A DNA stretch of 64,000 nucleotides from Schmidtea polychroa (Eukaryota): contig CM097886.1 of assembly GCA_044892525.1 (NCBI GenBank), positions 34,410,001 to 34,474,000 of the forward strand, in the 5' to 3' direction. How positions within the stretch are numbered: position 1 is the first letter of the stretch; the number at the start of each line of letters is the position of its first letter. The notes beneath the pieces were generated by a model. The model was not told where the DNA came from. It ran no database searches and saw only the letters and a list, made by a program, of their open reading frames with translations. Positions 3,569 through 33,120 of the stretch are shown piece after piece. The position numbers and the translations under genes were made by a program.

Positions 3569-3935
3569 GGTACATGTATGTTCAATTAAAATCAAATCTC
3601 TTCTTATAGATCTTATAGATCTTAAAATTTTATTTTTTGATTGTTTCACTGCAGAGGTCGTTTTGTGAAAATTGCACAGCTAACCAATTAATTAAAACTG
3701 ATAGTAGGTGCTGACGATAATTAGTCACATAATTTTTTAATAATTTTGGAATTTCGTCTATTTTTTTTGCTAAAACACACTTCCACATACATAATATTAA
3801 TAGAATAATATATTAATAGCCAAATGGTTTAGGATTTTTATTTGGTACCATTTGGAGTACTACGTTTGTCACCTTAATTTTCAATATTTCCTAAGGTTCT
3901 TTAGCTTTTTTTATTAATTTTGGTGATTATCCCTT

Positions 3936-6900
3936 TGCTGGGGTAGTGCTCGATTGACCTCAACTCATTTACGCACCTGTCTAGGAGATGAGTGTCCATT
4001 CATTTACGCTAAGTGTGCTTACGTCAATCCGGAGCAAGACCCCGCACAACTTGTATTCCAACATAGCACCCGTGAATTACTCCACGTTGGAAATGTGCTA
4101 TGCCGGCGAGACACCAGTAAGCAGGTGAGCCCCTACCTTAGGACTACTCCTTACTGAGGCCTCGACTTCCTTTTTCTGACGGCCGATGGAAGGGCTTACG
4201 TCTGATCACTCCACCATTTCCTTCCCCACCTGACACCGAGTTGTATACAGATTGTCTAAGGCTTTTCGAACTAAAGTTTGCGCCTGGGTTGTAAAAACTA
4301 CTCTGCACCTTTATAATGGCTAATCAAACAAAACTAACAATAAGAAATGACGAAAATTCCTTTATTCTACTATCATAGTGCGTTATACAGTTAAAACTAC
4401 AGGACTAATATAAATCAAGGGAAGACGGTTTACGAGAACATATAAGTCAGAATCGTTCAATTTACTAAACATGATCGATGTAGTTGCATTGGATCGAGAT
4501 CTTTACTTTTCCCATTCTGCGTCGGCTAACAGCTCCTCCAGCTCGAAGAATTCGGAGGCATTCTCCTCCCAAGTTACACCAGCGGCGGAGATGATTCGCC
4601 CTGGGATCCCTACGGTTAAATCGATCGTTACAGGGGGATCGTTCGAAGTACTGGAGAGCTCGGCGGATAGTCCACTTTGTTTGGCGATTGCTCGTTCGCG
4701 CTGACGCTTTTTACGCTCAGCTCTGGACAACTGTCGACGCTTGGGTTTTGGAACAATCAGGGTGTTTGATAGGACGACAGAAGAAGATGCGGTCGATGGT
4801 AACCCTTTCTGGGCTCCAATGGGAGACACTACGGCTGGCCTGGGAGAGAGGTCGGCCTCTACGCATTCCCGGCAGGGCTTCTTGGCTGAAGATGACGAAT
4901 TTGAAGGAAGTTCATGATGGACGGGGAAGAGGTCGTCCGCTCCATTGATGGGTATACTCACTATCTTCCTAGTCGCTGCCGCTTGAACGTAGACCTTGTG
5001 TAGAGCCTCGGACTGTTCTTTGATAAGACTGCGTTGGGCCCTACTCTCGCTGATTAAGGCGTCGCGACAGTGCTCGCTTCGGTACAATTTCTTTTGTACC
5101 TCCTTCATTTGTACTGGACTAAACCACGTACCTTCCAGATGGTCGATCGCCTTCTTGTATCTACCGATCTGGGCCTGTAAATCCCTGATTATAGTATTTT
5201 TATCTGAGCAGGAGAAGCAGGGTTTGAGGGATGATCTCGAGTTGGGCAACATTTCTTCGGTAGCTAAAATGAAGACAGGATAATGTTGATTAAACGAAAA
5301 TTTACTACATTCACTAATCCATCAACGTGGCGGCATTCCTTATCAAGGGCCTGACCATCCCCCCATTACACCCACGGGCCAAGGACTTTACGAAGAAAGG
5401 GGACGGAAGAGTTAAAATGACTGTCAGCAAAATTCAGTTGGATCGATGTTACATCCGCAAATAACCGGTGTTTGGGCATTAGTAAATCTATCTCCCTTCC
5501 CTTTATTGCGACCACGATAATTATAGCGTCGAGTTAGGTAACTTAACAATACGAGAGTGTAGTCTACATGTGACTTCGTCATCATCTGGATAATTTGGAC
5601 AGATCAGATATGGAGGAGTAATAACTTGATTAAAGATTCGTACATCTAATCCTAATTACAATATTTAAGTTTGCTCTAATTCAGCATATTTGTGATTATA
5701 ACAAATTAGAAATCGAATGTACATTGCCCATCTGATTAGTTACACTATTAATACTCTCTACCAGTTTGATAACTATTCTGGTTATGTGAGACATCAAATG
5801 CGGACCGTCTGCTGTATGTATTATCAGTGACTGATGCGATATTCAGATTATTAATCGATGTTGGATTTACTATGTCCGGGTGATGGGAGTCGATTCTATC
5901 GTTACTGGTGATTAAATTGTGCATTCACCCTGACTGTGCAATCTACGTGAGTATTCTACCGGCTATCTCATATGTTAGCGTGAATTTATGCAGGTGTTTC
6001 TACTCGTAAGTGATTATCTAATCCTAATCATGATGTACGTGTAGTCAGATTGTGCTTGCTCGTTGTACGCATTCGTGCTCTATGTTAGTCACTGAACTTG
6101 AAATCTGTATTTCTGTTGGGATTTAATCATTTAGTGTTGATATAATCTACTGGCTAATTCCCATTGCACGTGGAATATGGAATTCTATATTATGTTGCAT
6201 TTCCCGCCTTCAGGTTCGGATATCTCACTCAGTGGATGTATTTTATCAATTAACTCAAAGAAACCTCATCTTGGTGACGTCCAACAAAGGTAATTTCCTG
6301 AAAATACTTGTCGGGTTTCTACTACCAATCATCCGGAATGGCATTATTTAATAAAAACTAAAAATCCTTTGTGGAATTTCATTTTTAATTAACCACGTCT
6401 TATGACTTTATTTTGTGCATTTAATAGGTTATGAGTCGGAGGTCTCTTACCGATTGGCTTTCAGGCTACGGTGATCAGAAATCTGGACAGAACTAACTAA
6501 TTTTTATAAGAAAATCAAATGTCCTTCGAGATGTTTTTGCATTAAATCAGGTGACTAGAAATTTTCAGTTATATGCCTACACCAATTTGTGACCTCAGAG
6601 TGAGTCTATCAATGTTCTAGTTGTTTCGTTTAAAACGGGAATTGAACGAATTTTTGGTAGCAAGACAATTTACCGCGAGATGTTAAAGCGTCGACTAATG
6701 CGAATTTACGATTTGGACTAATTCATAATGTCAAATGAACTTTTTAACGCATAGCGTTGAGGAAAGATAAGTTTTCTTAGTAGGAATTGCAGTCATCTCA
6801 GTCATTGTCTATCATGGCCACATTCATTGTTTAGAGTCTGAAACCGGTCTCACTTCACACCTGACTATTTGCCTATAATAATTTAAGTCCTTCAGCGACG

Positions 6901-7842
6901 GACCCGTGAGGAAGCCCCCACATTCCGGCCCACGTCAGCTGCGTGATTGAAGAAGTCTGTACCCACCGGCTGAGCTCCCGAAGGCTCCTCACACCATGGT
7001 ACAGGTTTCCTCAACTCCACGTTACTCAACCATAATTTTCATATAAATTCCATAAAATCGAAATCATCATGCATAGTTATCTATCATAAAAGGGTTTAAA
7101 TTTCATCACTAAAAATACTTAATTATTAATATATGAGACCAAATGGAGAGAACATTAAAATTTTATTAAAATTATGATAATAAACATTATTACTATTAAC
7201 CTCCATGAGAACATTTACTTAAATTCATAATAAGAATACATCCTTACTTTATTCTTTATCGATCTGTGATCTCGAAAGGCTGAGTCGAAAAGCTGAATTC
7301 GGTATTTGCACTGAGTTGAAAATCTAATTGTCCCTGATAGTCGCTTAGGTTGTACGTCGGTGATCGTCTGTAATGGTTGGGTGTTGATCTGTAATGGTGT
7401 TTGTTAAACAGTAAATTTTAAATTATGAGCTTACCTGTAATGGTGTTTGTTAAACAGTAATTATATTGAATTTGCTGTTTGCTTATATAGGAATTTTTTG
7501 TTTATGCGGACCAATCAAAATTGAGTACCGCTTTAACTTTTAAATTAATTTGTTTTTCTTATTTCTTTGGTTGTTTTTCCTTATTTTTCTTTATTTTAAT
7601 ATATTTTTTTTTGTTTCTTAAATTCCTCATTATTTGTTGCATTTTTCGTCATTTTATTCCTTATCTTATTACCTTATTTTAATTTTTCTATTTTTTATTT
7701 TTTGTTTTAATCTTAATATTTTACGTTATTGTTTTCTTTTGTCTCTTGATTTATTTATTTTAGCACTTTGTGGTCTTATTTTATTTGTTCGTGTCTTATC
7801 TGTCCTAAATTTGACGATTATGCTTTTCGACTCAGCCCAACA
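3936..7842 (-). repeat. 3' LTR (3,907 bp)
   Basis: Minus strand begins TGTTGGG and ends CCCCAGCA. Matches 29541-33447 except substitutions seen at 4284/29889 and 7442/33047. Confidence 0.96.
4503..5252 (-). CDS. LTR-encoded ORF, 249 aa (3' LTR copy), unknown function
   Basis: Open frame with CxxC (CFSC), coiled coil, second CxxC (CREC), basic NLS-like PKPKRR..RKKRQRER and acidic-aromatic C-terminus. Acceptor-like TTCATTTTAG 11 nt before the ATG; AATAAA at 4366-4361 followed by a GT-rich tract. Confidence 0.7.
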   Translation of the reverse strand: MLPNSRSSLKPCFSCSDKNTIIRDLQAQIGRYKKAIDHLEGTWFSPVQMKEVQKKLYRSEHCRDALISESRAQRSLIKEQSEALHKVYVQAAATRKIVSIPINGADDLFPVHHELPSNSSSSAKKPCRECVEADLSPRPAVVSPIGAQKGLPSTASSSVVLSNTLIVPKPKRRQLSRAERKKRQRERAIAKQSGLSAELSSTSNDPPVTIDLTVGIPGRIISAAGVTWEENASEFFELEELLADAEWEK

Positions 7843-8115: not shown

Positions 8116-8760
8116 TTACTCTGCTGACTCTGACTGGGGTTGTTGGTACATTTTAGGCTCGATGTTGTAGTAGGCCGGACGACTGGTTGAGGGTTTGGGA
8201 GATTCTTGGTTGGTTAATCTGAGTGGACTTGTATTTTGAGTGATGTTGGAAAGTTCGACCGAATTTTTCTGGGTAGCCTTGGATTTCGGTTGTTGGCATT
8301 TTTTCTTGAATTCGAGGATTTCTAAGAAGGTTATTAGACATAATAGGCTTGTTTCGGCGATCACCACATATAGAAGGTAGTGGGTGTCGCCTTGTTCTGG
8401 GGATTTTTCGATTTTTTCAGGTTCGGAATTTTCCTGTCGTATTTGCACTTCTAGTTGATCTAGGTGATGGATTTGTTCTATCATCACCTTATTTATTTTT
8501 CTACACAGGAGGTTTCCTTGGCACATTACTCGGATATTGTCCATGTAGGTTCGGGTTGAACGGATGTTGTCTATGATTTTGCTCTTTACCATGGTATGGC
8601 ATCTCGGTTTAGGTGATTCGGATTGGGTTTTCGAGTTCTTTCTTCGGTGATCTCGGAGGCTATCTATTTGGGGGTTACTCTGTGGCTTGCTCATCAGATT
8701 GTTAGCCAGTATTATCAAGGTGATTGTCACTCCCCACCGCATTATACTGTTATACATCAA
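8116..8760 (-). CDS. Element accessory ORF, predicted type I membrane protein (about 208-214 aa)
   Basis: N-terminal hydrophobic MRWGVTITLIILANNLMS, internal TM-like YLLYVVIAETSLLCLITFLEIL, polar tail. AATAAA overlaps the stop. Confidence 0.65.
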   Translation of the reverse strand: MMYNSIMRWGVTITLIILANNLMSKPQSNPQIDSLRDHRRKNSKTQSESPKPRCHTMVKSKIIDNIRSTRTYMDNIRVMCQGNLLCRKINKVMIEQIHHLDQLEVQIRQENSEPEKIEKSPEQGDTHYLLYVVIAETSLLCLITFLEILEFKKKCQQPKSKATQKNSVELSNITQNTSPLRLTNQESPKPSTSRPAYYNIEPKMYQQPQSESAE

Positions 8761-8796: not shown

Positions 8797-9498
8797 TTAA
8801 TCGTCTTTCTTTTGGGGGTCGTTTTCGGTGATTCTCATTAGGATGGTCTCTGCCTTAATGACCCGATGTCTTAATTCCGGCATCATCTCTAATTGCCGAT
8901 CTTTTTCACGGGCTTCCCGTTTTAGGTGTCTTATCTCCTTTTTTAGTTTGCTTATTTCTTCTCGTTTCTTGTCAAGATTTCTTTTTAACTCGATTTTTAG
9001 GAAATCTTGTTCGTTCTCCTGTGGAGGGTTTCGTTGTTGTTGTTGTCTCTCAATTTCTTTGTATTTGCGAATCCATTTCTTCATTCCTTCACTTTCTTGT
9101 TGACTTTCTTGCAATTGTTTCTCTAGTTCCTCTATGGTTGCTTGCCGTTCTCGCGCCTCAGTCTTCCAATAATCGCTAATCACTTCGTCTGCCTTTCTAC
9201 TGGCCCTTTCTTGCCATAATTCTTCCGCAATCTTCTCCCAATTTCTTCCTCGTTTTCGTTGTTCTTGCAGCCATTCGTTTTCCCCTTCTGTTTCTCTTTT
9301 TACTTCCCCTAGCACTCTGCATTCTTTCTTTAGTATCTTTATTATTTATCGATCTTCTATGTATTTGTTTACCAGTCTCTCGTTTTCGCACTTTTCTTCT
9401 CGCAACTCTGCTTCTAGCGTTTGTGTTTCTGTTGTTTCTGTTACAATTTCTCCTTCTTCCTCGTCGCTCGTGATTTCTATCATTTCCTCGATTTTCAT
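8797..9498 (-). pseudogene. Element coiled-coil ORF interrupted by one in-frame TAA (9346-9348)
   Basis: ORFs 9346..9552 and 8797..9315 are in the same frame, separated only by TAA and 10 sense codons (IIKILKKECR). E/K/R/Q-rich throughout. Confidence 0.6.
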
Positions 9499-9673: not shown

Positions 9674-10729
9674 TTATACGAAGGTTTCCTCCTGGCCTAC
9701 ATAACCTTCATCACTATCGACCGCGGGATGTAACTGTATCGCAATAGGGTCGTATGGTAGGTAATATTGGGGAATTTGAGCTCTCAACTCATTAATTTCG
9801 TCTCTTAGAGCTCGAGTGATGTTCAGCTCTTCGTCGAGCAGGTAGGTGAGGTACCTTGTCTCTTCGTCTTTCATCTCTATTTGTCTATCTAGGGCCTTGA
9901 TTTTCTCGTCGCCTTTCCATTTTTCAATTTCTATTTCCAAGTTTTTGATGTTTTCGGTGTACATTTTCCTTTCGTTTTCTAATTTTCTGTTTTTCCCAGC
10001 TAGGACCATGTTTCTTTGTTCCAGCGATCCTTGTAATCCATTAAGGTCTCTTTTCATCTCTTCTACCTGATTTACTAATTCCACAACCCGTCCTGCTTGT
10101 TGGGTTATCATCTCTTCCATTGCGGCATTCTCGTGCTCTCTTATGTCGCATTTTATTGCCAAATGTCGCTCAAACTCCATAGCCTTTGTCTGCCAGGTTT
10201 GACTTCGGGCGGCGACCTTTCTCAACCGTTTCAATTCTTCCTTTATTATTAAATTCTCCTCCCATTTACCTTGTTCGCTTTCATATCCGAGTCTCATGGG
10301 CATTTCTTTCATCTCTTTTTTCATTTCACTGTTTTGTCTTTTCCATTTTCTCGCTTCTGCCACTAAGTGCATCATTTTCCTTCCTTCTATTTGCTTTTCC
10401 GCTTCGCGCTTGGTGTTCTCATCGGTAAGTCTCTTTCTCGCTTCCTGCACTAGCTGCTTTAAGTAGTGGCTGTGCGCTTCTTGGCGGGTATTTTCTAGTG
10501 ACGCCCATTTTGATGCTCTTTTGCATGCTTCTGCTTCCGCTCTTAAGTTGTGTATTAACCATTGGTATTGACTATTCTCATCCTCTCTAGCTTCTTCGAT
10601 GTGATTTCGGGTGAGATTAGTTAGTTGGAACATTACTTTGTTCCATTTTTTGTTATGTTCTCGGGGAATTTGTGTCTTGTTGACATTGGTTGGGGCTATC
10701 GCAGTTTCGGTTATTTTCTCTTGTGTCAT
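9674..10729 (-). CDS. Element accessory ORF, 351-aa coiled-coil protein
   Basis: Long E/K/R/M-rich helical ORF with the same purine-rich strand bias as the polyprotein. TTTAG|AG immediately before the ATG. Confidence 0.75.
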   Translation of the reverse strand: MTQEKITETAIAPTNVNKTQIPREHNKKWNKVMFQLTNLTRNHIEEAREDENSQYQWLIHNLRAEAEACKRASKWASLENTRQEAHSHYLKQLVQEARKRLTDENTKREAEKQIEGRKMMHLVAEARKWKRQNSEMKKEMKEMPMRLGYESEQGKWEENLIIKEELKRLRKVAARSQTWQTKAMEFERHLAIKCDIREHENAAMEEMITQQAGRVVELVNQVEEMKRDLNGLQGSLEQRNMVLAGKNRKLENERKMYTENIKNLEIEIEKWKGDEKIKALDRQIEMKDEETRYLTYLLDEELNITRALRDEINELRAQIPQYYLPYDPIAIQLHPAVDSDEGYVGQEETFV

Positions 10730-10923: not shown

Positions 10924-12312
10924 TTACTCCGTTCTACCCTTTCCTTCCCTTCGTACTGTCATTTTTATATGTATTGTGTCATTTTTCGTCATCTCTTCCA
11001 CCTTTTGCTGCAAGATGAACGTAGGTGCCCCTGATGCTGCTCCTTCTTCCTCCATAGGTCGCCGGTAACACAGCTGGGTTCCCGTTGTTTTAAAGCTTTG
11101 TTCGTGGACGCTTTGGTCGTTCATCATTGTGATATCGATTTTTGCCTGGAATGGCCATTCTATTACCTCGTCATATTCCCCTTTACATAATAGGAAAAAT
11201 ATCGAAAAATGCGTATTCAATCCGGTTCCATCTCCGTTGGGATATATCCTCATTTTCATCTTGTACCCATTTTTCCAAGAATGGAATGCAGGACTTGTTA
11301 TCCTTGTCTCTTCTCCGGTTTTTGCTTTTCGTATTCTTTCTTTTACTCCCGTTATTTTCCATATGTAGGGTGCTGTTGGTATTACTTCATTTAGATTTAT
11401 TTCCCGTATTTTCTGATGTAGTTCCTTGGCCTGATTATTACTGATTTCCATTCGGTTCATTTGCATCTTTATGTTTGCTCGGGCTTCTTCGAACGCTTCC
11501 CTTTCTTCTAGTAGTTCTTTGACTAACACTTTCAACGATGCTATCTCTATCTCCATTTGTTTTACTTTCTCCTCGCTTTCTTGTAACGCAGTCGACCACA
11601 TTTCTGCGTGGGTTGAAGCATTTTCTACTAAATGATGTGGTAACTCCCCTCGGTGTAGTAGTTTCTGACAACCCCATTTACCTAGTACACATGTCATTCT
11701 TTTCTTTTCACATTCCCTTAGATGCTGTGCCACCTTTATTATTTCCCCTTGGTTACATCCGTTTGGGCATTCCCCACTGAACTCTGCACATACTCTCTCC
11801 TCTTGGATATTGTGATGTTTGAGGGTGAGATTTTTCCACGTATCTATTTCTCCACAATGTTCACATCTTTCCAATCTCTCTTCACACTGCCTTTGATGCT
11901 CTTTTTCTTCGCTTGCTCGAATGGTTTTATGGCACCTTTCACACTGGCCAATTCTGTACATACATTCTCCCATATGTTGCACTACTTTCCATATTATTCC
12001 TTTCCATTCGCATGGGGTATTTTTACATCCCAGATTGGTGTTTAACATGTCTTTCACTGCGGCTTTATCCTCGTTAGTGTCTTCTAAACTCGATATTAGT
12101 GTCTCTTTACACACCGGGCACCACTGTGGTCTATTCTTTATTGCTTCACTGATACATTCTTTACATACTCTGCATCCACATTGGGTTTGGTGAGGTTCCT
12201 TTAACAACTTTTCACAGATTCCGCACATAACATGTTTGTGTGTTCGGATCGTTGTAGATTTTCTGACTTGTTCGACAATCTCTCTGAACTCTTCTCTTTG
12301 TCGTTTATCCAT
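10924..12312 (-). CDS. TRAF-like protein (RING - TRAF zinc fingers - coiled coil - MATH), intronless, element-borne
   Basis: RING CGICEKLLKEPHQTQCGCRVCKEC..CPVC; C/H zinc fingers; MATH motifs YIWKI, SPAF, GYKMKMRIYPNGDG, HFSIFFLLCKGEYDEVIEWPF. Confidence 0.93.
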   Translation of the reverse strand: MDKRQREEFREIVEQVRKSTTIRTHKHVMCGICEKLLKEPHQTQCGCRVCKECISEAIKNRPQWCPVCKETLISSLEDTNEDKAAVKDMLNTNLGCKNTPCEWKGIIWKVVQHMGECMYRIGQCERCHKTIRASEEKEHQRQCEERLERCEHCGEIDTWKNLTLKHHNIQEERVCAEFSGECPNGCNQGEIIKVAQHLRECEKKRMTCVLGKWGCQKLLHRGELPHHLVENASTHAEMWSTALQESEEKVKQMEIEIASLKVLVKELLEEREAFEEARANIKMQMNRMEISNNQAKELHQKIREINLNEVIPTAPYIWKITGVKERIRKAKTGEETRITSPAFHSWKNGYKMKMRIYPNGDGTGLNTHFSIFFLLCKGEYDEVIEWPFQAKIDITMMNDQSVHEQSFKTTGTQLCYRRPMEEEGAASGAPTFILQQKVEEMTKNDTIHIKMTVRREGKGRTE

Positions 12313-12397
12313 TCTATAATTATATATACATATAGTTCTTATCGATACAGGTTCGATATTTTATTTACAATTATTTACATTTTAAGCTAGGTTTGGT

Positions 12398-12781
12398 TTA
12401 GGGTTCGGAAGAGTCGGCTTCGTGTCCGCTCTCCTCTCTATTCATTAGCCATTCCGACCAGTCTTCTATTTCCGTCTGTTCTGCTTCCTCCATCATTCTG
12501 TCTAGCTCGATTTCCTGTCTACGGCTATATTGGGTTATCCTCTCTATCTCTCTTTGCATTTGTTCGATTTTCAACCTCTGGTCTTCAATTATCTTCAAAT
12601 AACTAAATCCTCTATTCATACTCTCGATTAGGTTTCTGTGCATCGTCAATCCTTGTTCTTGCAAATTGGACACTAATTGTGCTAATACGGCACATTGTTG
12701 CTTCCATAATTCTTCAGTTACTGTATTGTGGTTCATTTCGTTATTTCCTTGATCCATTCTTAATTTATATACACTTTTCAA
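12398..12781 (-). CDS. Element accessory ORF, about 120-aa coiled-coil/acidic protein (likely ATG at 12757)
   Basis: Open frame MDQGNNEM..EQMQREIERITQ..; ORF-track start is a TTG. Confidence 0.6.
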   Translation of the reverse strand: MKSVYKLRMDQGNNEMNHNTVTEELWKQQCAVLAQLVSNLQEQGLTMHRNLIESMNRGFSYLKIIEDQRLKIEQMQREIERITQYSRRQEIELDRMMEEAEQTEIEDWSEWLMNREESGHEADSSEP

Positions 12782-12917: not shown

Positions 12918-13712
12918 CTATATACGTGAGTTTGGAGGGCGCTGAGCGTTCCAGGCCTCCACCCACTGTTCTTGTTTGATATCACTTGGTCGTTTCACTC
13001 GATGTTGGAAATTTCTGATTCGGGTCATCTCTAGTTCTCCGCGATGTCGTTTATCTTTAATTATTTTTATTGTTCCCCCCGTTATGATTAGGAAGGCCCC
13101 TGTTATTATTATCCCACTGATCCACATCATCTGCTTCACGCTTATACTCTCTGGTTTTTCCTTGTTTGTTAATGTTACTATTGCTTCTGTACTTTTCTCG
13201 TTCCCTCTTTTGCCATTCCCTTTCATCATCTCTCGTATTCTTGCTATTTCCTCGTTCATACCCTCCTTTGCCATCTTTTGTATTTTTTCCATCTCTTCCT
13301 CCGAAACATAGTTGTCCTGAGCTTCCTCGCCGGTTTTCTTGTGCTTTCCTCCTTCGTCCTTTTCGTCGTGGTTTTTCCTTTTCTTTCCTCTTTTCCCCGG
13401 GTATCGTCGGCATTCTCTTTTTGATTCGTTCCTCCAGATACAAACCGTGTATTCTTTCGGCGGCTGCTGCTGCGTCACATATTGATGGCATCTCTCACCT
13501 GGTCCTAATCTTGAAATACAGACTTTGTGCTCTTTTCTAGGTTGGAGCTGCGTTATTATTACTTCACCACCTTTTCCTAGGTGTACCTCTTTTCCTTTAA
13601 CGTTCGTTATTCTCTTCCCGTCTCGATTTCGGTATGCTTCTTGTATTCTTACTTCTGTTATTGGTTCTGTGTCCTCATTTATCAGTACTAGTTTCTGATA
13701 CGCTCTAGACAT
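12918..13712 (-). CDS. Element accessory ORF, 264 aa, basic/charged with C-terminal TM segment
   Basis: ATG overlaps the polyprotein stop (ATGTCTAG). TM-like MMWISGIIITGAFLIITGGTIKII. Confidence 0.7.
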   Translation of the reverse strand: MSRAYQKLVLINEDTEPITEVRIQEAYRNRDGKRITNVKGKEVHLGKGGEVIITQLQPRKEHKVCISRLGPGERCHQYVTQQQPPKEYTVCIWRNESKRECRRYPGKRGKKRKNHDEKDEGGKHKKTGEEAQDNYVSEEEMEKIQKMAKEGMNEEIARIREMMKGNGKRGNEKSTEAIVTLTNKEKPESISVKQMMWISGIIITGAFLIITGGTIKIIKDKRHRGELEMTRIRNFQHRVKRPSDIKQEQWVEAWNAQRPPNSRI

Positions 13713-16700
13713 GCATCTTCCTAGTATGCACCTTTCCTTTAAGTCCCATTCTTCCTTTAAATCCCAACTGCTCTTGTGCTTGCTTTTTCTTTTCTTGTTT
13801 TAGTTCATCCTCTTTGCCATCTTGATTCTCCGCTTCTTTGGTTTCTTTTATCGTTCTCGTCCCTCCATGAGCTGTTACTAACTCTATCATGGTAAGCATA
13901 ATTATCATTAATATCATATTTGTCTCTATTTCTTTGTTAGTGAAAGGTAGGCATACCCTCTGTTTTCCATTATTCGGTTTTTCCTCCTCTTTGGTCTTGG
14001 TTCCCGGGCTGTTTCCCTCTCTTTTCGTATCCAACTCCTTGTTTTCCGGTTTATCCTCTTCCGGTTCTCTTTTCCCTTTATCCTCTTTTCGGCCTTTTCC
14101 GTCATTGTCATCGTGTTTATCTCCCCCGCTGTCGTTTAAAATGTCGTCCTCGACATTTATATCGTCCAATAATCTGCGATATGCTGTTAGCACTCTGTTT
14201 TTTGCTAATTTTGCTTCGAATTCAAATTCTTTTCTACCCGTTGCAGCATGTCTCTTTCTATTCCATTCTTTAACTAACTCTCTCAATTGAATACGACGAT
14301 GTTTCCCAATTCGTTGTTGCTCGCTCTTATTTTGCGTGAATTTGAGGTCTTCTCTGTTTAGTACTATTAAAATAATTTTTGGTGTCCCCCCTTTAGTTAA
14401 TGTATTCTTTACCATCGCGTTTTCTCCGTTTTCGTAGAATTCGTTTATATTTATCGCATATTTATTACTTTGTGGTATTCTCCATGTTACTAATAATTTC
14501 ATTGCTTCTAGATTTTTCCGTACCGTATTCCATTGGAATTGAGATGTGTTTTTGCACATATTTTCAATTTCTTCCTTTGTCGCATTTTTGCAAATAAATC
14601 TGATCATTTCCAAGTTTGGCTGTATGGTTGCCCAGTCCAATGTGGAGTTCCCTTCGTTTGATTTTTCGTCTAGTCTCGATCCTGATTGATGTAGGATGTG
14701 GAGTGTTTTTGGGTGTATTTTCGTTATAGCTGCATACATCATGGCGGTTTCGCCTTGTTCATTTTTCGTGTTGGTTTCCTCGCCCATCTCCCTAAGGATT
14801 CTCATGATCGTTATTGCTCTATTCTCTTTTGCAGATAGTATTGCTTGTTGTAGAGGTGTTCTGGAATCCTTTGTCGTCATCGCAAATGCTCGAGGCAAGA
14901 AGGTTTTGATTTTCTCGATATCTAAACCCGTGGTTTGATCTCTTGCGTATGTGTGTACGGCTTTTATTATTTTTGACAATATTATTTCGTCGGACAGCTC
15001 TAGCATTTCCTCGAAGAATACTTCTTTTGCTTTGCATATTATTGCCTCTTGATCTATACTCATTGATTTGGTTTCGATGACGTTGTTTGTGACCGTCGAC
15101 TTTGGTTCCCTTGATTTCCCATACCTTATTTTCGTTTTCTTTCCGTTTGGATTATTGATTCGTTCCTCTGCTGTAAGTATTTGGATAATATCCAGGTAAT
15201 TCTCGTGGAGGTTATTCATTGTGTCCATCATATATAACACACTTACCGTTTCCCAATATTTATTTCGTACTTGGTTAGTAAATTGGAATATTGATTTTTC
15301 GAATGTGTCGATTCGCTTTTTTGCTAACTGTTCATCTTTATGATTTGTGAATTTTATCCCTCGTTCTAGTAATTGATTCGGAATTTCGAATAAATGATGT
15401 CCTTTCATAGCTTCTCTCATCAGCGTGTTCTCTCCTCTCGTGAACGCTTCGTTTACGTTGATCATATAATCATTTTTAATTGGATTTCTCCATGTAATTA
15501 ATATTCCGGTAATTGTTGTCAGTTTTTCTTTGGTCGCTGTTAGTAATCCACCATACATGTTTCCGACTTCTTGATTGTCCTCATATGATAGTAACTCCAT
15601 CAACGATGTGAACGCTTCGGTACTTTTCCCTTCGATAGCATGATGTAGTGCGTTTTTCCGCTCGCGATCTTGTGTAGTTATTTTTGATCCAGTATCAAGT
15701 AATGCGGTTATGATGTCTTTTGTTTTGCCTCTGTTTGCTGCTATCATTAATGGTGTGTAACCTTGGGTATTTTCTTGTTCTGTTGATCGCTTGCAGTCGT
15801 GAAATGCTTCTATTGTTTCTAGTATTTGCTCGTTGTTACCTACTTTCATGAGTTTGTGTAATGGTGTGTCTCCGTAATGATCTGTTATTGTAAATAATAT
15901 TGGCCATTGGCTTTTGACTACTCGCAATAATGGGTGTGTTCTCTCTCTGTTTGCATAATTTTCGATCATCGTCAATAATCCTCCTAATATTTCGAAATCT
16001 AATCGATCTTTTGCCCATCCGGGTAATTTTATCTTTACCTCTCGTACGATTTTTTCGGCTTCCGATGGTTGTATGCCCAATCGTCCAGTGATCGGTTCTG
16101 CGAGTTGTTGCATCATGTTCATTCTGTAGGTTTGCGAACGTGTGGTTAATGTACGGCCTTCTGGATGACTGGTGGCTGTTTTCGGAATTGGTTTGCATCG
16201 TGCCACGTTTACGTATATTGGCCTGGTGAATGGATTATTTATCAATTTCACTCTAACGTTGGTTTCGCCTACAAATAGGATCTCATATGGCCCTTTTCCG
16301 TTCCGTTGTAATTTTCTTGTGGTTCCGGGAATTAATTCTGGGGTCTCGATCATCACCCAATCACCTGTTTGAAACGTATGTTGCTTCACGTTTTTCTTTC
16401 GATCGTGTAAATCTTTATAACTTTCCTGGTAGAACTTGATATTTAATCCCGCAGTTTCCCAAATTTCTTGCATTCTTTCCTTGAATTTCGTAACATAATC
16501 GTCGATCTCCATATACTGCGATATCGGTGGTTGGTATTCCAGGTCCATTGGCATGTTACATTCTCTTCCGTACATTAATTTGAATGGGCTCATTTTCGTT
16601 GATGCGTGAATCGACATTCTGTATGCCATAAGACATAGGTTTATATATTCGTCCCAATCTCGTTGGTGACGGTCGACGTAGTTTGATAACATTTGTATAA

Positions 16701-19700
16701 GTGTTCCATTAAATCTTTCCGTCATCCCATTGGTTTGAGGATGATACGGTGATGTTCTCAATTTTGCGATTTTGAAGTAATTTGTTACTTCGCTCATTAT
16801 CTCACTCATAAAATTAGTTCCCTGATCGGTTAAGATTTGTTTTGGTGTTCCATATCGGCAACATATTTCTTCTACCAAAATTTTTGCGATTGTTTTAGCT
16901 TTTTGGTCTGGCATCGCGAATGCTTCTGGAAATTTCGTGAGAAAGTCTGTAATCACTAAAATATAAACGTTTCCTCTATCCGATTCCGGTAATGGACCAA
17001 CTACGTCCATTGATATCATTGTCATTGGTTCTATTGGTACTGGCATTGGCGTTAAAGGTGCTTTCCATTTCGATCCAGTATTCTTCCTGGTCGCACAAGT
17101 TAGACAATTTTTTACCCATTCGGTTACATCTTCAGTTAACGTAGGCCAAAAATATTTCTGTTTCATTCTTGCTAACGTCTTTTTCGATGACATATGTCCT
17201 CCCAATCTCCCATCGTGATATTGCGTTAGTAACTCTTTTCGTCGGTTTTCCGGTATACACATTAATCGTTTTTCCCCATCCATTATCAGCAACCAATCTT
17301 TCTCTATAATATATCGGTGTCGGTGTTTATCCATATGTTCTTTTAATTTTTGGTCTTTCGCATATACATCCGTCTTTCCGGTTTTTACATAATCGATAAT
17401 TTGTTTTAATTCCGCGTCCTCTTGTTGGTCCTTTCGCAATTGACAGAAATCCAAATCTTCCGCTACTATTAAGCATATGCGTTGCATTTCTGAATCCACC
17501 AAATCTGGAAAAATAAATCTTGACATACAATCGGCGTTGGCATTTGCTCTTCCTGCTTTGAATTTTATAAATGGGGAGTATTCTTGCAATTGCATGGCCC
17601 ATCTCATCAGTCTACTGGACGCTTCTTTATGTTGCCCTAACCACACTAATGGTTGATGATCTGTGGTTATACATATCTCATGTCCCCATAACAAATATCG
17701 AAAATGTTTGATTGCCTGTATTATAGCCAATGCTTCTCGTTCTGTTACTGAATAGTTCTTCTCGTGCTTTTTGAATGTTCGACTGTAGTATCCAATTACT
17801 CTTTCTTTACCTTCGTCGTCTAATTGTCCCAGAATCGCGCCTGCCGCGTACCCGCTTGCATCCGTTGCCAATAGAAATGGCTTCTTGAAATCTGGGTGTA
17901 CCAGTATTGGTGCTTCGATTAGTTTGTCTCTCAGCGTTTCGAACGCCTGTTGTTGTTCTTTTTCCCAAATGAACGAAATGTCTTTCTTTACTAATTCCTG
18001 GATTGGTTTTGCAATTCCTGCATAATTTTTGATAAATTTGCGATAGTATCCGCATAATCCTAGAAATTCCTGAACTTGGGTGACAGTTTTCGGTGCTGGA
18101 CATGTTTTTATTTTCTCAATGTTTCTTGGATCTGGCTCCTTTCCTTTAGCTGACACTATGTGTCCCAGAAACGTGACTTTTTCCTTTGCCCAATCGCATT
18201 TTGAGGGTTTGAGCTTGAGTTTCCATTGTCTTAATCGAATAAATACATTTCGGATATCTTCCAGATGTTGTTCAAATGTCGCTGAATAGATTAGTAAATC
18301 ATCAATATATACCATACATTGTTTGATTCCGTGAGTGACAAAGTTCATACACCTTTGAAATGATGCTGGTGCGTTAGTCAGTCCGAATGGCATTTTCCTG
18401 AACTGATATAGATCTCGTCCCAACGTGAAGGCGGTCTTCTCTTTGTCCTCATCCTTGACTTTAATCTGCCAGTATCCACTTTTTAGGTCTAAAGAAGTAA
18501 AATATGCTGTCCCTTGCAACATGAGTAACATTTCATTAATGTCTGGCAATGGATAGGTATCTCTCTTGGTTACTGCGTTTAATTTTCGATAATCGATACA
18601 GAATCGTTGGGTGCCATCTTTCTTTTTCACCATGACCACTGGGAATTGCCAAGGTGAGCAACTCGGTTCGATTACTTTTGCGTCTAGCATCTTTTGTACT
18701 TCTGCTTCGGCTATTTCTTTTTGCATTTCTGCTAGCTTGTATGGTCTTAATGCAATTGGAGTTTCATCTATGAGGGGTATTGCATGTAGGGTAACATCGC
18801 ATGTACCCAAATCTAAATCTGAGATGGCGAATATATCTTTATATTCTACCAACAATCGGTGCAATTTTTTCTTTTCATCATTCGTCAACAACATACTATC
18901 TATTGTCCATAATTCATCATCTTTGATCATCTCGTTGGTCACTTTCGGTAATTCTATGTCCATCAATGGGGTCAATCTTCCCAATTTTTCGTTCTCGTAA
19001 ATGATTTTGTCTTCCTCTTCGAAATTCGTGATGTTGAGCGGTATCACTCCTTCTTGGTTTATTGTGATTATTTCTCTTGCGAGGGGTAATTCTCGTCGCT
19101 TTTCGAATGATTTGCTTGGTTCAAAGATAACTTCTCCTTCCATACCCGTATCCACCTTTATCTGACAAATCATCTGTGATTTTGCTGGTACCACAATTTT
19201 CTCTGGACATCTAATTATGGCATTCATTTTGCATATTCTGCCTGTTTTGTCTTTTAAACACATGGTTGTTAAATCGATCACCACTTCTTTTAATAATTCC
19301 GGCATCAGGTCCGTTCCGATTATGCATGGTACGCTAAGTTTTGGTATTACTGCCAAATACGTTTCAATTTCGTTGTCCTGGTATCTCAATGTAGTCCACC
19401 ATCTTCCGACCACGTCTACTGTTTCTTTACTACATGCTATGATGTGAATTGTTGTTGATTCGATATCTTTCCAGTGCTTACTGGGGATTTGATTAATCGC
19501 TATCACTGATACATTAGCTCCTGTGTCTATCATAGCATTGGTTTCTTTACCATTGATTTGAATCATGACTGTTACTGCTGGACCTCCAGGTAAACTCATC
19601 GCTGCTATTGTTCTTACGTCATCTGCTTGATCTACACTTTTGGTACGTCGTGTTGGCATATAATGCATACCGGGTTGACTCGGTAATTGCGGATACATGT

Positions 19701-22700
19701 TTTGTGTCATGGTCAAAGCTGCTTGCGGTCCCACGATATCGGGCGATATATAGCTTCCATTGGCGATCCAGGTATTTGTCTTTTCCTTTTCCCAATATGG
19801 TGCCGTTTCCACTGGTTTTTCGTTTGGGTTTCTGTTTGGATATAGACATTTATCGTTCCCGTTATCATCGTCGTCACTATCGCTGTTAGATGATTGGCTT
19901 CTAAATCGGTCCAAGAATTTTGGCTTATTCTTTTTCAATTGTCGTCTTGTTGCTTCGTCGTACATTACTTTCCGGAATCGTCTGCCTACTTCCTCGTCGG
20001 TTCCTTTAATCTTTGTTAGTATTTTGATCAATCGCTTTATCCGATGGATGTCTTTTGAGTGACCATGTAATACCATGGTTTTTGCTAAAAATGGTAAAAA
20101 GCCTACTATCATTTTCCAGTTGACTTTCTTTTCCCGCTTGTATATATCAAAACAAGCTAACATTTGTGTTAGTATTACTCTGACTATCTGAATTATGAGT
20201 ATGATCCCTAATATCCCGGCCATCATTTGTCCAAAAACTAAGAATCTTCCCCACATTGCTTTCATCATGTTTGACGTAGCTTGTTGAAAATGGTCTGGCG
20301 ATAATAGCAGTTCGTAATTCGGGCCTGATTGATAATTTGTTCCCCCAGTTATTGTAACCATATTTGACAAAATGGATTCTCGTCTGGCTGGGAAGAGTAC
20401 GTTAAGTCGTGCTGTTTCTAGATCTTCTGGGGAATACATTCCACCGTTTGACACGTCTATAGGTTTGAAATCCAGCTCTGTGGCGAGTTCTATTAATCCA
20501 AATTTCTTGGGCTCCTCGGATATGGTTTTTCCCGGTAACATCATCCATTTCCCATCGGGTCTTTCATACAAAGGTCCGTATGCATTAGAACAGTTAAAGA
20601 GATTTGGGTAGAAACCCACTGGATTCATAATTCTCGTGACTGGTTGGACGAATCGATTTTGTCCTTTATAACGGATTTCTAATTCATTTGCACATCTCTT
20701 TTCGGGTAGTATGGATTTTTCTGGCATTCGTGCATACGTCTTGGTACACTGGTATGTGTACATTACTTCTCCTACCATTCTACCAAAATGTCCGTCTGGT
20801 AGTGGGAGTGATGGCATCGTGTTATCTGGGTGCGTTATCGCAATAGCTAGCTTTGTTTTCAGTATTTCTTTATTCAATGAACAATCGTTTTGTATCAGAT
20901 CGTAATATACTTTTTGTAAGGTCGTTTGCCCGCGATGAAATAGAAAATCCATTTTATTATTTGCATATAAGTATAGTTTTACGTCCTCCGTTGCTATCTT
21001 TCCCACTGCTCTATCGATTATTTGTCTCGACATATAGATACCTGCGTAATTGGTTTTATATACTATACTGTCACATTTGGTGGTTTCTTTCTCTTTGATA
21101 AATCTCATACCTAGATCTGGATCGTCTGTGATTAATGCTGTTGGTGTCTTCTGCGTTGAAAGTCTCTTTTCTCTGGGAGATGGTGGCATTGGTTTTCCAT
21201 TTCGCATTCTCACTCTGTCGTTTCCATCCTCGTCGTTCTCGTTCTCATAAATTTCTCCTTTTACTTCATTGAACAAAGCACTTTTTAACAGTTGGAGTCG
21301 GCATTTTTGGGTATTAGCTTCATAGATTATAGTTGATACTCCTGTCCTGCATACGTTTTCTGTAGCTCTACATGCTGGGTTGGTCTTCATTTGATAATTA
21401 TTTGCGTCAAATTGCGCTTCGTATTCTTTTAATTCAACCGTATAAGACTCGATCACTACTACTCCCGATATTACCTCGCCTCGGATCGTATACGTACCTC
21501 CGTTACATGACCCATCTGATGATTTTACTTTTCCGGATACGTAAACACTTTCGGTTTTAATCATTCCAGTTTGTCCGTGAATCGTCACTCCGTTATGCAT
21601 TTTTAACGCTCCGGTTCTAAATAGCTCTTTACAGTCCTCTCGTTGTATTGATACGATTTCTTTATCCAGACCGGGTAGTATAAGAGTCGAATACGAATAT
21701 TGTCCACAGTAATATGCGAGTACCTTTTTTGATACTACGCATTCCCTTGCTTGCGTTCTGATGAAATCTGATTCTTGATATACATGGTAGGTAACTTTTG
21801 TTCTTACTATGTCTAATTTGTTGGGTGATGCTTGTCTGCATTCTTCTATGTCTCTCAATGAGTATTTATCCCTCATTATCATATTATCACAATCGTAGAT
21901 GGTAAAACCTGTTGCTCCACTTGTGCACAACATCCATATCATCATAGTCATCATTAACGAATTTATCGATGCTTTTCGGCTTGCTGGGTCTTTCATGGGT
22001 AGTTCCCATTCTAGTTCATTCAGCAACTTCTTCAATCTAACTTGCATCGACCTTTCTTGCTCATTTTTTCGTGGTGCTTGTATAAGTCTTTTCCATCCTC
22101 CGGCACGAATAATGTGTGGTTCAATAGTGTTTTCTATGACTGAAACTGTCATTTCCACGTGATTTGCAAACTGTTTATTTGGTATTTTCCTCGCAGCTAG
22201 TCCCATCAAATTATACATCAAATACGTGATTACCACTAGATGATGTTCGTCATCATTTGCATTTGTCGTGAGCTGTTCAATCACTCTCTTCGTTTCATCC
22301 CAATCCGTTTTGGTGGTTTTCGTTTTCTCTTTGATTAACTTTGGGATTGTCCCCGAAACGATGTGCCATAATTGTCTAGCTTCCGTACTGGCTACTTTCC
22401 GTTGCCACAAACGTCTAAGTTGTGGGTTTGTTATTATTAACATATCTTTGATCAATTCTCGTATCCATTTTTCTCCTCTTTCGATCGTTGGTTGGGCTTC
22501 CTTTAGATCCCATACTATTTTATCCAATTTTTCTAATCGAACTTGCCCTTGTTCTTGCTTTAATTGTTCCTTGGTTTTGAACTCAGACTTTTCTCCTTGT
22601 TTCTTAGGTCTTCCTTTTGCCCGTTTTTCCATCATCGTTCCGGCTTCTCTGGTATTTTCGTAATTCGGATTTCTTTCGTTATCCGTTCTGGGTAATGAGC

Positions 22701-25700
22701 TATCGTTATTTCTTAGCCACTCATTCCATTCATCTATTATTTTATCGGTTTGACCTTCTGATGTTACTTTCGTTGGTTCTCTTTGCTTCTGGAATTGTTC
22801 ATCCGTTTCGGTTTCCGTAGTGTTGTCGATGATTTCTTTGATGTTTAGTTTCGTTGGTTGTTGATAACTCGTTGATGGCTGGTTATTAGTCCATAGTTCA
22901 GCTCCTGTCGGCCATCTCACTAATAGCGGTGATCTTTCTCCTGGTTCATCATCGCTGTCTTCGAGGATAATCTCTTCGACTTCTTCAGTTTCATTGGATT
23001 TACTTGGTGCTTTGTTCGGACTTGGAGTACTCAAGCTGCCTTTTGTTGGTTTATTAATTTTGCTTTTCCTTTTCAACGGTTTTCCCAACGTTTCCGCCAT
23101 TGTTAACACATTCGTCTCTTCCAATCTCATGGGTGTTATTCCGACGTCTGCATTATCGTCTAGTGATTTTCCGAATAGTTGCAGATGGAATGGAGTTTCA
23201 TATGCTAATTTCTTTTTTAATTCTCTAATCTTTGTTGTTGGATGCACCTCTAGTTCCTTGATGCTCTTGTCCGGATACTTGATTCGGATGTGATACCTCT
23301 CCTGAGTGTCTTGTGCCCATTCCTGATTTCTCCATTTTCGAATAATTTGTTCTAGCTGTTCTGGATACAATTCATTATATTGCCGGTATTCCTCTATTGC
23401 CTTTGCCGTTCCTCTCAGATTGTGGATGTTCTCTGATGTCTTTAAGATGATGTTAGCCAACGCTACTACTTGGCGTTTTTGATTTTTCGCTCCCATTGCT
23501 AAGATATCGCCTAATTGTTTATATCTTTCTTTCTCTTCTCGTTCTCTTGCTTCCGTCGCTTCCTCGCCGTCCATATCAGCATATTCACGTTCCTTTTTCC
23601 TCATTGCATGAATATGTCTCGCTTCATTTTCGCTTTCTGATGTGACATCCGTCTCGCCTTCGTCATCTGATGTCTGTTCCCTTGCTTCCTCTTCATATTC
23701 TGGAGGTTCCTCTTCTTCTTCCTCCGATTCACTTTCTGTTTCACCAATGTCTGTTTCTACGAAGATTCCTTTCCGGATTTCCCATTCCTTATTTTCTGTA
23801 TTCCACACTCTTTCCCATGGGGTTCGTCTGCAGGATCTGGTACTTAGTTTTGTGATTTTTCCTTGTAATTCCTTTTCTTTTAACCATTGTTGGTGGATTT
23901 CGATTATTTCTGTAGATTTTTGATATAACGTTTTCATCCGGTCTCGTATTTCTTTTTGATATGTTACATCTCTTGTTCGAAATTCATCCATTGGTACTAT
24001 CCTGATTATCTGATGATTGTCCCACATACCCATTTCGCTTAACGAGGTGTCGTCTTCCGCTCGTAATATTATTTTATCGTACATCATGACTACATCATCT
24101 ACCATACCATCACCACTTTCGCTACGTACCTTTTCCGTTATCTCTTGGTTTATCTTTGATACCAAGTCATCCACTGTACTCTGATTGCTCATTTTTATTC
24201 GTCGTTTTTCTTCGTTCGGTAACCATATGGTTATTTCCAACCTCTGTGGCTGGGTTTCTTTTAACCTTCCATATTTGTGGATCAAATTTATGGTTCTCCA
24301 ATCACTCATTCGGAGCATTTCTGTATCTCGCAACCGGCTCATTAGTTCGTACATGGCTGGGGCTCGCCTGGTGATGAGTAAATCCCAGTTGTCTTCTACT
24401 TGTTCTTGAATTTGTTTGATCAGCTTATCCAGGTTTCGTCTCAGAGTACATTGTTTTATTTGTTCTAATTTCAATTTGATATTAAAATCATATTCTGCCT
24501 TGGCATCTTTAGCCCAATCGTAAAGGTTGGCTGGTTGTTTTTCTTTATGCAACTTCAGTATTTGCGTTTCTCCTGGCCATATTAGTGCATCTACTAAGTG
24601 CATATCTGGTTTGATCTGTTCTCCTTGGTATTGATACAGATATTCTTTCTTTCTCGAACTTCCCAAATGTTCTCGTATCCAATCGAAAAGTTCGTCGGTG
24701 ACTGTACTTTTGATCCACATTCTTTCAAGTCCTCTGCTCGTTCCGATTTTTATTACATACCGCGTGGTATCGGCCTGCTTCATTTTTTCCATATACTTTT
24801 TTATAATTGATTTTTCCTCGTTTGGTATTAGATCTTTCTCGTTTCTTTCCAATTTCATCACTTTTTGTACGAATCGTCTGAATGGTATTATATCGATGAA
24901 CTCTTGATTCCTCACTACTACTGGGAGTATTTCAGCTACTTGTTTTATCGCTTCCTCCCTCTCTTTTCTCAACTTTATTTCGATATCCTCGTCTTCACTT
25001 TCGCTGGTTATCTCGCTTTCGCCTTCTTCCTCTTTGATTTCCCCTTTTGGAGGTTCGCTTATTTCATTTAGCTGTAGTATTTCTCCACCCAAACTACTTA
25101 CATAGTCTTCTTCTTCGTCTGACGATGCTACATCTTTTGTCCTTTTCATCATATTGATTTGCAAATTTCTTATCCTTGGTACTCTCTTTAGTTTCTTTCT
25201 TTCGAATATCGTTGTTTCTTCTGATTCTAATTCTTGTAGCATTTGGTGGTTTAGTTGACTGGTTTGTTCCTTGCTCTTGTTATTTTCGTCTTCTGTCTCA
25301 GTTTTCGCTTTATTATGTTCTTTTTCGATTTTATCTTTTATCTTTTTCCAGAATATTTTCTGAATTCTCTGGTTTCCTTTTAAAATCGTGGTTGAATTCT
25401 CTGTTTTCATTTCCGTTGTTGTTTCTTTTACCTTTTCTGGTTCCGTCCTGGGTACTACCCTTGGGTTTTTCCCGTAATTGTAGCAATACTGGCTCTTCAT
25501 GTCTTTTACTAACTTCATCATATTTATTCGCAATGGTTGTTCTTGTCGTTGTTGGTTGCGTTCTTGTTTTATCCTCTCTTCCTCGGCCTGTAGTCTTTGC
25601 CATTCTTGTACATGTTGATGCACTTCATAATTGTTGAGATTTTCGGTACTCCTCATCATACGTATGTTCTGGGTTTGTTGTGGTGCTGGTTCTTGTCTTG

Positions 25701-28812: not shown

Positions 28813-29298
28813 TTAATCACCGTAATAAACCATATGGGTTTCTTTTATCTCATGTTTGCATATGGTACATCGTTTCAGGTCTTGTGCGCATTCTTCACAA
28901 TGACTGAGGTGTCCACAAGGCAAGAACAGTACGCGAATAGGACGAAGTTTACAAGCAAGGCAAGTTCGTAATAGGGTCAGTTTTTCGTGTATTTTTCGCT
29001 CGATTGTATCTGATATGGTACTTAATGGATCTTTTATACGTTGATAATCAAGATTTAATGTTGGGTGGTTCAATCTCTCTTGATACCATTGATACACGGT
29101 TTCAGGGTTTATCTTCCCCTCTGGGTGACTTAGTCCTGCGGCTAATAACATGTGGTTGGGGACGACTGGTGTTTGCCCGATTGCTTGGAGTAGTATGATG
29201 TTAATTCTTTCTCTCTTTTGTGTCAGCGTTTTAAGGGAGTCATCCTCGATGTTTACGAAGTTGCTTAGTTGTTGTATCTGGTCCACGAATTCCGTCAT
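28813..29298 (-). CDS. 161-aa protein with C-terminal IAP/MDM2-type RING finger, element-borne, upstream of gag
   Basis: CLACKLRPIRVLFLPCGHLSHCEECAQDLKRCTICKHEI at the C-terminus; no BIR seen. TTTTTTTTAG|ACATG start context; AATAAA plus GT-rich tract near 28690. Confidence 0.85.
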   Translation of the reverse strand: MTEFVDQIQQLSNFVNIEDDSLKTLTQKRERINIILLQAIGQTPVVPNHMLLAAGLSHPEGKINPETVYQWYQERLNHPTLNLDYQRIKDPLSTISDTIERKIHEKLTLLRTCLACKLRPIRVLFLPCGHLSHCEECAQDLKRCTICKHEIKETHMVYYGD

Positions 29299-33034: not shown

Positions 33035-33120
33035 CTTACCTGTAATAGTGTTTGTTAAACAGTAATTATATTGAATTTGCTGTTTGCTTATATAGGAATT
33101 TTTTGTTTATGCGGACCAAT
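33035..33120 (-). promoter_or_regulatory. Candidate LTR promoter: CCAAT (33116-33120, plus strand), TATATAA (33094-33088), start near 33063, donor AG|GTAAG at 33039
   Basis: Motif order and spacing (TATA about 30 nt before the putative start); same motifs at 7430-7515 in the 3' LTR. Confidence 0.5.

Follow-up and report, generated by a model that had tools for sequence, protein, structure and literature searches.

The window, a 64,000-nucleotide stretch of the Schmidtea polychroa genome (contig CM097886.1, positions 34,410,001 to 34,474,000 of the forward strand), contains a 29.5-kb element with a full-length TRAF open reading frame (ORF) as an accessory gene at 10924..12312 on the minus strand. 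The element is a Burro-like giant Ty3/gypsy element, retrovirus-like and of a kind known from planarian flatworms. It is 29,512 bp long and is bounded by two direct repeats of 3907 bp, the 5' long terminal repeat (LTR; 29541..33447, -) and the 3' LTR (3936..7842, -). The repeats differ by 2 mismatches over 3907 bp, have TG...CA ends and are flanked by a 4-bp target-site duplication, CCTT, which has no strand (3932..3935, second copy at 33448-33451). The LTRs are near-identical and the insertion is very young. The TRAF frame runs from ATG to stop without an internal stop and encodes 462 aa.

Between the LTRs, a 4350-aa gag-env-pol polyprotein (13705..26757, -) was delineated using Pfam and Foldseek. 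It comprises in order Gag, CCHC knuckles, a mononegavirus-type fusion glycoprotein, protease, reverse transcriptase (RT), RNase H, integrase and ankyrin repeats. Retrotrans_gag lies at aa 52-145 of the polyprotein, the protease at aa 2397-2488, RT at 2710-2868, integrase at 3168-3340 and Ank at 3642-4054; a Monjiviricetes-type fusion glycoprotein (PF24664, E 5e-70) occupies aa 1868-2207, in frame between gag and protease. A segment before env gave weak ubiquitin-like matches (E 0.0098 and 0.07). Upstream of the polyprotein is a 161-aa ORF (28813..29298, -) with, by Pfam, a C-terminal RING (zf-C3HC4_3) and no BIR. Downstream of pol lies a 3' array of accessory ORFs. A 119-aa ORF of no known family (12398..12757, -) is placed directly before the TRAF, which is followed by a coiled-coil-like ORF of 351 aa (9674..10729, -), a further coiled-coil-like ORF that in this copy is broken by an in-frame stop at 9346-9348 (8797..9498, -), and a 213-aa ORF (8116..8757, -) whose hydrophobic N-terminus and second hydrophobic stretch appear membrane-protein-like by eye.

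The original prediction had described the TRAF as a RING-zinc finger-coiled coil-MATH protein, and all four parts were recovered by Pfam, PDB matches, AlphaFold2 and Foldseek. The RING (aa 30-68; 12109..12225, -) scores 21.4 bits against PF00097, for which the cut-off is 21. Its ligands are all cysteine (C30, 33, 45, 47, 50, 53, 65 and 68); the fourth, usually a histidine, is Cys47 within the motif CGCRVC. Five TRAF-type zinc fingers follow (aa 96-235; 11608..12027, -), identified from their ligand sets and from structure matches. The Pfam zf-TRAF profile is silent on the window TRAF and fires on host gene L045 and on the TRAF of a second element family described below. Residues 23-159 match solved RING-zinc-finger regions of TRAF5/TRAF6 (E 1e-13 to 3e-10), and most zinc-finger ligands are invariant in a 22-row alignment. 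The coiled coil (TRAF-N; aa 232-304; 11401..11619, -) precedes the MATH or TRAF-C domain (aa 316-455; 10948..11367, -), to which PF21355 matches over aa 316-453 with E 2.4e-26. The best PDB matches of the C-terminal part are TRAF1/TRAF3/TRAF2 (E 4e-28 to 2e-26), then TRAF5, TRAF4 and TRAF6.

An AlphaFold2 model generated from the 22-row alignment has a mean predicted local distance difference test score (pLDDT) of 88 and consists, after the zinc fingers, of one long helix at aa 232-304 and then a beta-sandwich; its top Foldseek matches are TRAF3, TRAF1 and TRAF2 (E 3e-18). Residues 232-458 were also predicted as a trimer with three-helix, heptad-spaced coiled-coil contacts, at an ipSAE of 0.75 against 0.24 for the best control, with contact agreement of at least 78% and pLDDT of at least 81. 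On eukaryotes, 17 of 29 solved pairs and 0 of 30 single chains reach the mark applied to this trimer; TRAF trimers are already solved, so the pass may reflect complexes already known to the predictor. The MATH loops were compared: SSS and ASGC, which we take to be peptide-binding residues of TRAF2, read SAC and ASGS in host L045 and QLC and ASGA in the window TRAF. In most copies, K replaces R355 and T replaces S427. These loops are host-like in L045 and in a MATH domain found in the polyprotein of the second family, changed in the window TRAF and variable among subfamilies.

Absence of the gene from other copies of the element had been named as grounds for abandoning the original prediction. 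The opposite was found, and the gene belongs to the element family. In a genome search with the TRAF, the best 92 of 1942 candidates were scored; all 92 matched at 91-100% identity, 5 of them with a stop, and element flanks surrounded 30 of 30 fetched copies. For an independent sample, the 150 best RT matches were thinned to every fourth one, giving 37 copies. In 36 of these the TRAF lies at most 10 kb from the RT (34 intact, 2 broken), and in the sole miss, L111, it was located ~17 kb from the RT (L014). The accessory ORF at 8797..9498 was scored intact in 31 of the 37. More than a hundred dispersed copies of the element TRAF exist, and in further subfamilies at 83% and 70% identity the gene order is unchanged.

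Purifying selection acts on every domain of the TRAF, the RING included. Among the 30 closest copies, the mean pairwise ratio of nonsynonymous to synonymous change (dN/dS) is 0.135 (bootstrap 95% 0.10-0.18), with domain values of 0.10 for the RING, 0.13 for the zinc fingers, 0.30 for the coiled coil and 0.13 for MATH. Thus, the dN/dS check proposed with the original prediction returned a value of ~0.14, in place of the neutral decay that it had offered as the alternative outcome. The neighbouring accessory ORFs gave 0.11-0.14. In the RT-chosen set (32 ungapped copies), TRAF dN/dS is 0.15 and 0.14 within subfamilies and 0.06 between them, against 0.005-0.011 for RT; between subfamilies the TRAF evolves ~20 times faster than RT (dN 0.17 vs 0.008), and synonymous sites are near saturation at the deeper levels. 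Of 27 zinc-ligand positions (Cys215 not among them), only three have an exception, one each, across 58 distinct intact proteins.

The corresponding polymorphism ratio (pN/pS) was assessed over 73 ungapped copies from 80 distinct loci, the pairs not being independent. It is 0.59 for pairs less than 0.5% apart and 0.15-0.18 for pairs 0.5-12% apart, and a stop is present in 9 of the 73 copies. Such a pattern is expected of selection acting during replication and decay setting in after insertion. Selection acts on lineages that replicate rather than on each inserted copy, and the benefit goes to the element.

Host TRAFs were collected by searches with a distant TRAF together with PF21355. Eight of nine long host TRAF2-like frames run from RING to MATH in a single frame (L045, L062, L093, L095, L098, L099 and two in L108; the exception is L110). 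The single-frame genes have a GC content at third codon positions of 0.23-0.36 and lie outside element arrays. One host TRAF is single-copy and conserved, with 71% identity to Dugesia japonica TRAF-2-like A. The window TRAF is only 26-32% identical to planarian host TRAF2-like genes, its best host match being ~31%. In the original prediction, the lack of introns had been taken as a sign of RNA-mediated capture; this argument falls, because related host TRAFs are single-frame too and the absence of introns cannot show such a route. The missing introns were probably inherited from the host family, judging from these frames. RNA-mediated capture is the default route for LTR elements and remains so here, and nothing in this analysis shows it. 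The accompanying statement that genes in this region are intron-rich applies to some neighbours (the OATP frame spans 3-176 of 545 profile positions) and not to the TRAF gene family.

A similar correction concerns the RING. The cysteine-for-histidine change was correctly read as CGCRVC, but is not special to the element, being common to its host relatives. A CGC RING is present in 7 of 7 aligned host clade genes, 5 of 5 element rows, the Dendrocoelum TRAF and two close relatives. Among the other rows, CGH occurs in oyster, fish, caecilian and one distant row, CGD in mussel and CGC in a crinoid TRAF3-like protein; two intron-containing TRAF4-like genes of the genome keep CGH. We considered whether the cysteine was an element novelty or an inactivating change and rejected both, since host genes share it and the ligand is kept across copies.

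Phylogenetic comparison with host TRAFs, which the original prediction had called for, places the element TRAFs in a triclad TRAF2-like clade. In a maximum-likelihood tree of 37 rows the elements group together (support 98/96) inside a 19-row triclad clade (100/99), their position within it being unresolved. A grouping of the elements with non-planarian TRAF2/3/5, as horizontal transfer from another animal would produce, was rejected by the approximately unbiased (AU) test (p-AU 0.016), whereas a tree that unites the 13 triclad host rows to the exclusion of the elements was not (p-AU 0.29). The designation TRAF2/3/5-type therefore holds in that the protein is a complete TRAF1/2/3-like one, and fails in that, given the triclad clade, it has no one-to-one TRAF2/3/5 orthologue. 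A 35-row tree built from MATH alone unites all element MATH domains, that of the polyprotein included, in a clade (97/87) containing none of 8 clustered host MATH exons (10 tried, 8 extracted). This tree thus gave no sign of an element origin of the host TRAF clusters.

Copies of a second Burro-like family (L105-L107, G000:C1:21.53-21.56 Mb; L101-L104) have a pol ~67% and a Gag 35% identical to those of the window family. The second family carries its own full TRAF of 474 aa, 30% identical over 429 aa, with a homologue of the 119-aa ORF (31% identity) at the same place before it and a homologue of the 351-aa ORF farther downstream. Right after the TRAF there is a 392-aa BIR-RING IAP, and a host-like MATH also lies inside its 4791-aa frame. 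The TRAFs of the two families fall into a single clade (98/96 at full length, 96/82 for MATH only). Because the 30%-identical TRAF of the second family sits between the same neighbours, one old capture probably accounts for the TRAFs of both. Base use at four-fold sites is 55% A and 9% T in the TRAF and 53/11 in the polyprotein, against ~37/30 in host TRAF L045; since it equals that of the polyprotein and not that of the host, the gene has long been resident in the element. The source of this probably single and ancient capture would probably be the TRAF2-like gene family of planarians.

The spacer before the TRAF (12313..12369, -) contains TGTAAATAAA, a polyadenylation-like signal, ~47 nt upstream of the start and an acceptor-like YAG 1 nt before the ATG. 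Of 84 loci examined, in which three copies are represented twice, 80 have a TRAF start; all 80 place a YAG 0-3 nt ahead of that ATG, and TGTAAATAAA lies 45-50 nt upstream of it in 79. As background, YAG occurs at 28 of 647 positions in spacers and ahead of 20 of 168 internal ATGs. The TRAF of the second family is preceded by the same spacer signals, which is the stronger point because copies of one family share descent. These signals suggest that the TRAF may be expressed from a subgenomic RNA made by splicing. Its joint would lie at the acceptor adjoining the ATG and would arise by cis-splicing from a leader; alternatively, spliced-leader trans-splicing might follow polyadenylation of the upstream gene. 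Contigs of four runs, three of them guessed to be RNA, were compared with 7900-27800; some cover parts of the TRAF, and none of those listed showed a splice joint or leader at the TRAF ATG, which is evidence neither way. According to the accessible text of PMC8532177, intestinal cells are reported to contain BURRO1 RNA once smedwi-2 has been knocked down.

We propose, at what we judge an even chance, that the accessory TRAF is a conserved, probably once-captured and likely trimeric adaptor/E3 with altered targets, which keeps the host cell alive or damps stress signalling. The protein would act as a trimeric signalling adaptor, as the predicted trimer suggests, in which the retargeted MATH groove would give new partners and the all-cysteine RING would serve as a ubiquitin ligase. 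The outcome for the element would be that its host cell survives or that stress signalling is damped. A pro-survival role is our best guess because RNA interference (RNAi) of host TRAFs raises cell death and because the element class carries IAP/BCL2-like cargo. The available part of PMC7586133 describes more cell death and lethality after RNAi of S. mediterranea TRAF-1/2 or TRAF-2A/B, and in that part is silent on transposons and Burro. TAK1/MKK/p38 is listed as the innate signalling module of planarians in the sections at hand of a review (PMC7958881). A genome search for NF-kB/Rel (PF00554) gave no match; as its controls gave none either, this is evidence neither way.

Several points weigh against this proposal. 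The direction of transfer is not fixed by the tree comparison, given the p-AU of 0.29, and the MATH-only tree does not recover the triclad clade. Long branches and an unusual composition may draw the element rows together; for this reason their grouping is also made to rest on shared gene order and the spacer signals. Both copy samples were taken from the top-scoring matches, a choice biased towards young intact copies, and the low dN/dS is common to the other accessory ORFs, so that it shows function and not which one. Neither a transcript nor a splice joint nor a protein was seen. The placement of Smed-TRAF-2A/B in the donor clade rests on name and on a stated orthology to D. japonica TRAF-2A/B. 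ISKNV ORF111L, the one viral TRAF for which data were found, promotes apoptosis according to the portion of PMC3352826 available. The window's element has, by Pfam, no MATH in its polyprotein and no BIR, hence no BIR-IAP. A Bcl-2-like polyprotein segment is unconfirmed: no BCL2 sequence match was found in the polyprotein, and Bcl-xL recurred in the top Foldseek rows only at E 0.44 or worse, from a predicted model of pLDDT 59.

The same data were examined for other explanations. The element TRAF may be a dominant-negative decoy that enters host TRAF2-like trimers by way of its coiled coil or takes their partners, poisoning an antiviral or death pathway without signalling of its own. Peptide-binding loops that have drifted from the host pattern and vary among subfamilies, a predicted trimer interface that looks intact and the ~20-fold faster evolution relative to RT are all consistent with such a role. 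However, classical dominant-negative TRAFs lack a RING, and here the RING and zinc fingers are constrained as much as MATH. As the RING is no less constrained than MATH, we favour a working adaptor/E3 over a pure decoy, which we regard as unlikely though a genuine contender. The TRAF might instead serve the element's own cycle and have no survival role, acting as an E3/adaptor for Gag or envelope trafficking or budding, or destroying a host silencing factor. A changed groove beside a strongly constrained RING would suit this, as would the second RING ORF and the weak ubiquitin-like segments; no partner was identified, however, and in the extracts of PMC6431247 the published cargo of the element class is themed on apoptosis control, and we consider this explanation improbable.

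Two further explanations concern origin. Were the direction reversed, the single-frame Cys-RING host TRAF2-like genes would be domesticated element TRAFs and Burro would have seeded the host expansion. The host clade resembles the element gene in being poor in introns, and a tree with the elements as sister to all host rows was not rejected. Conversely, no host row nests among the element rows (13 rows, and 8 more clustered MATH exons), host genes are less diverged from the TRAFs of other animals, show the base use of the host and are located outside element arrays, and there are orthologues in Dugesia and Dendrocoelum; such a reversal is thus very improbable. That the TRAF is a neutral hitch-hiker, a recently copied host mRNA in decay, might be suggested by the stops in 9 of 73 ungapped copies and by the pN/pS of 0.59 in near-identical pairs. 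The dN/dS and pN/pS results refute it: dN/dS is 0.06-0.15 at deeper levels where synonymous sites near saturation, the TRAF is kept in two families whose proteins are only 30% identical, and the best host match, at ~31%, is no close source. We attach almost no probability to it.

Burro and GYPSM1 giant gypsy-like LTR retrotransposons are known from dugesiid planarians (Jurka 2007; Grohme et al. 2018, as described in the available part of PMC6431247), and the named Burro1-4 were compared here by published description only. The window's element shares with them a length of ~30 kb, long LTRs, one huge Gag-first polyprotein, ankyrin repeats, TRAF/MATH cargo and a mononegavirus-like fusion protein between gag and protease. 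As reviewed in the text of PMC6431247 that was accessible, Burro has a MATH_TRAF_C domain only, in the Burro1 polyprotein or, for a Dugesia tigrina element, in an accessory ORF placed upstream, whereas the window's element has a complete TRAF gene downstream of pol. Burro1 has both a polyprotein MATH and a BIR; the window's element has neither and the second family of this genome has both. With planarian host TRAF2-like genes (D. japonica TRAF-2-like A and the Dendrocoelum 'TRAF-4') the element TRAF shares its domain order, the Cys fourth ligand, the single frame, a similar insertion in zinc finger 3 and membership of the one triclad clade, and it differs from them in its low identity, altered MATH loops, element-type base use and more than 100 dispersed copies. 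Mammalian TRAF2/TRAF3/TRAF5 have the same architecture and fold, and the element TRAF is orthologous to none of them singly (p-AU 0.016).

ISKNV ORF111L and the megalocytivirus TRAFs are likewise host-derived TRAFs with RING, coiled coil and MATH on a virus-like agent, as set out in part of PMC3352826. ORF111L differs in belonging to a fish DNA virus, in its length of 296 aa with no zinc-finger array named in that part, in binding TRADD and in inducing apoptosis. Expansion of planarian TRAFs has also been published, with 121 MATH domains and 99 transcripts and, in the portion of PMC6109357 available, no link to Burro; PMC11410931 mentions Burro once and TRAF never. TRAF-domain cargo of Burro, a viral TRAF and the planarian TRAF expansion are thus already known, and this is not a new kind of system. 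The literature searched yielded no description of a full-length, 3'-placed TRAF that is under selection and has a defined host source clade; Grohme 2018, its supplements, Repbase or Fig. 2A of PMC6431247 may show the ORF. A homologue search with the element TRAF as query returned 1 hit among 3757 candidates and no element TRAFs of other species.

Burro elements have been said in print to 'meddle' with apoptosis and ubiquitination, and the present results give that remark a testable form for a single gene: a full-length TRAF that selection maintains in two old families and whose defined host source clade has members reported as necessary for cell survival. Hundreds of element copies can contaminate planarian TRAF counts, expression values and RNAi designs; the real host expansion, in the form of clustered genes, was shown to be separate from the element TRAFs. 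A wider hypothesis, which we hold to be doubtful, is that Burro is a complex retrovirus-like agent with an operon-like 3' array, whose genes polyadenylation and splicing would separate, and a two-part TRAF toolkit (a retargeted full TRAF whose active all-cysteine RING would ubiquitylate new targets and, in the second family, a host-like bare MATH in the polyprotein with an adjacent IAP) that would rebuild a TRAF-IAP survival switch, and that its copies inflate TRAF counts.

The large host TRAF-like clusters lie on G000:C2 at ~1.5-5.4 Mb and 105-124 Mb (L032, L034, L036-L043 and L067-L090). Their genes encode a Cys-type RING and one zinc finger, include a MATH exon, carry short introns where the coiled coil is encoded, and group apart from the element genes.

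Additional observations were made on the element copies themselves. The young window copy is already damaged, by the stop at 9346-9348 and by a frame change at 13700-13800 near the polyprotein end, with the TRAF intact. A 264-aa frame (12918..13712, -) that forms the polyprotein C-terminal tail in other copies is here split off by the frame change; the polyprotein frame is 4732 aa in many copies vs 4465 here, and at L109 the tail is in one frame with it. In L046 (G000:C1:210.03 Mb) the 119-aa ORF is missing and the TRAF is in one frame with the polyprotein end, a natural example of accessory cargo shifting into the polyprotein. Between L138-L147 and L112-L137, subfamilies whose RTs are 98-99% identical, the accessory proteins are only 66-71% identical, and some copies mix subfamily-typical identities along their length, which suggests recombination. 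The second-family copy at L100-L104 is broken by an inserted element with a 1526-aa frame.

Acceptor-like dinucleotides recur along the window's element, AG preceding by 1-2 nt the ATG of the accessory ORFs that start at 29298, 12757, 12312, 10729 and 9498. AATAAA or TGTAAATAAA is found farther upstream of several accessory ORFs, and the first ATG of the 213-aa ORF (8757) is without AG. Contigs of run X6, guessed to be RNA, end in poly(T) at 8151 and 24821, one each, which may reflect poly(A) sites or internal priming. No primer-binding site or polypurine tract was identified by eye, and no tRNA search was made. A 74-bp tandem repeat (28072-28257) is present in the leader, which separates the 5' LTR from gag. 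Each LTR contains a 249-aa ORF of high GC and no known family (30108-30857 in the 5' LTR, 4503-5252 in the 3' LTR), which has a 66%-identical homologue in an LTR-like stretch at L093.

Outside the element, the window contains AT-rich frames of host type. These are a 490-aa Cys-containing ORF with no Pfam match (36701-38173, +), a Nudt16-like decapping enzyme (39859-40383, -), an aquaporin (48111-48683, -) and an OATP exon (60031-60624, -).

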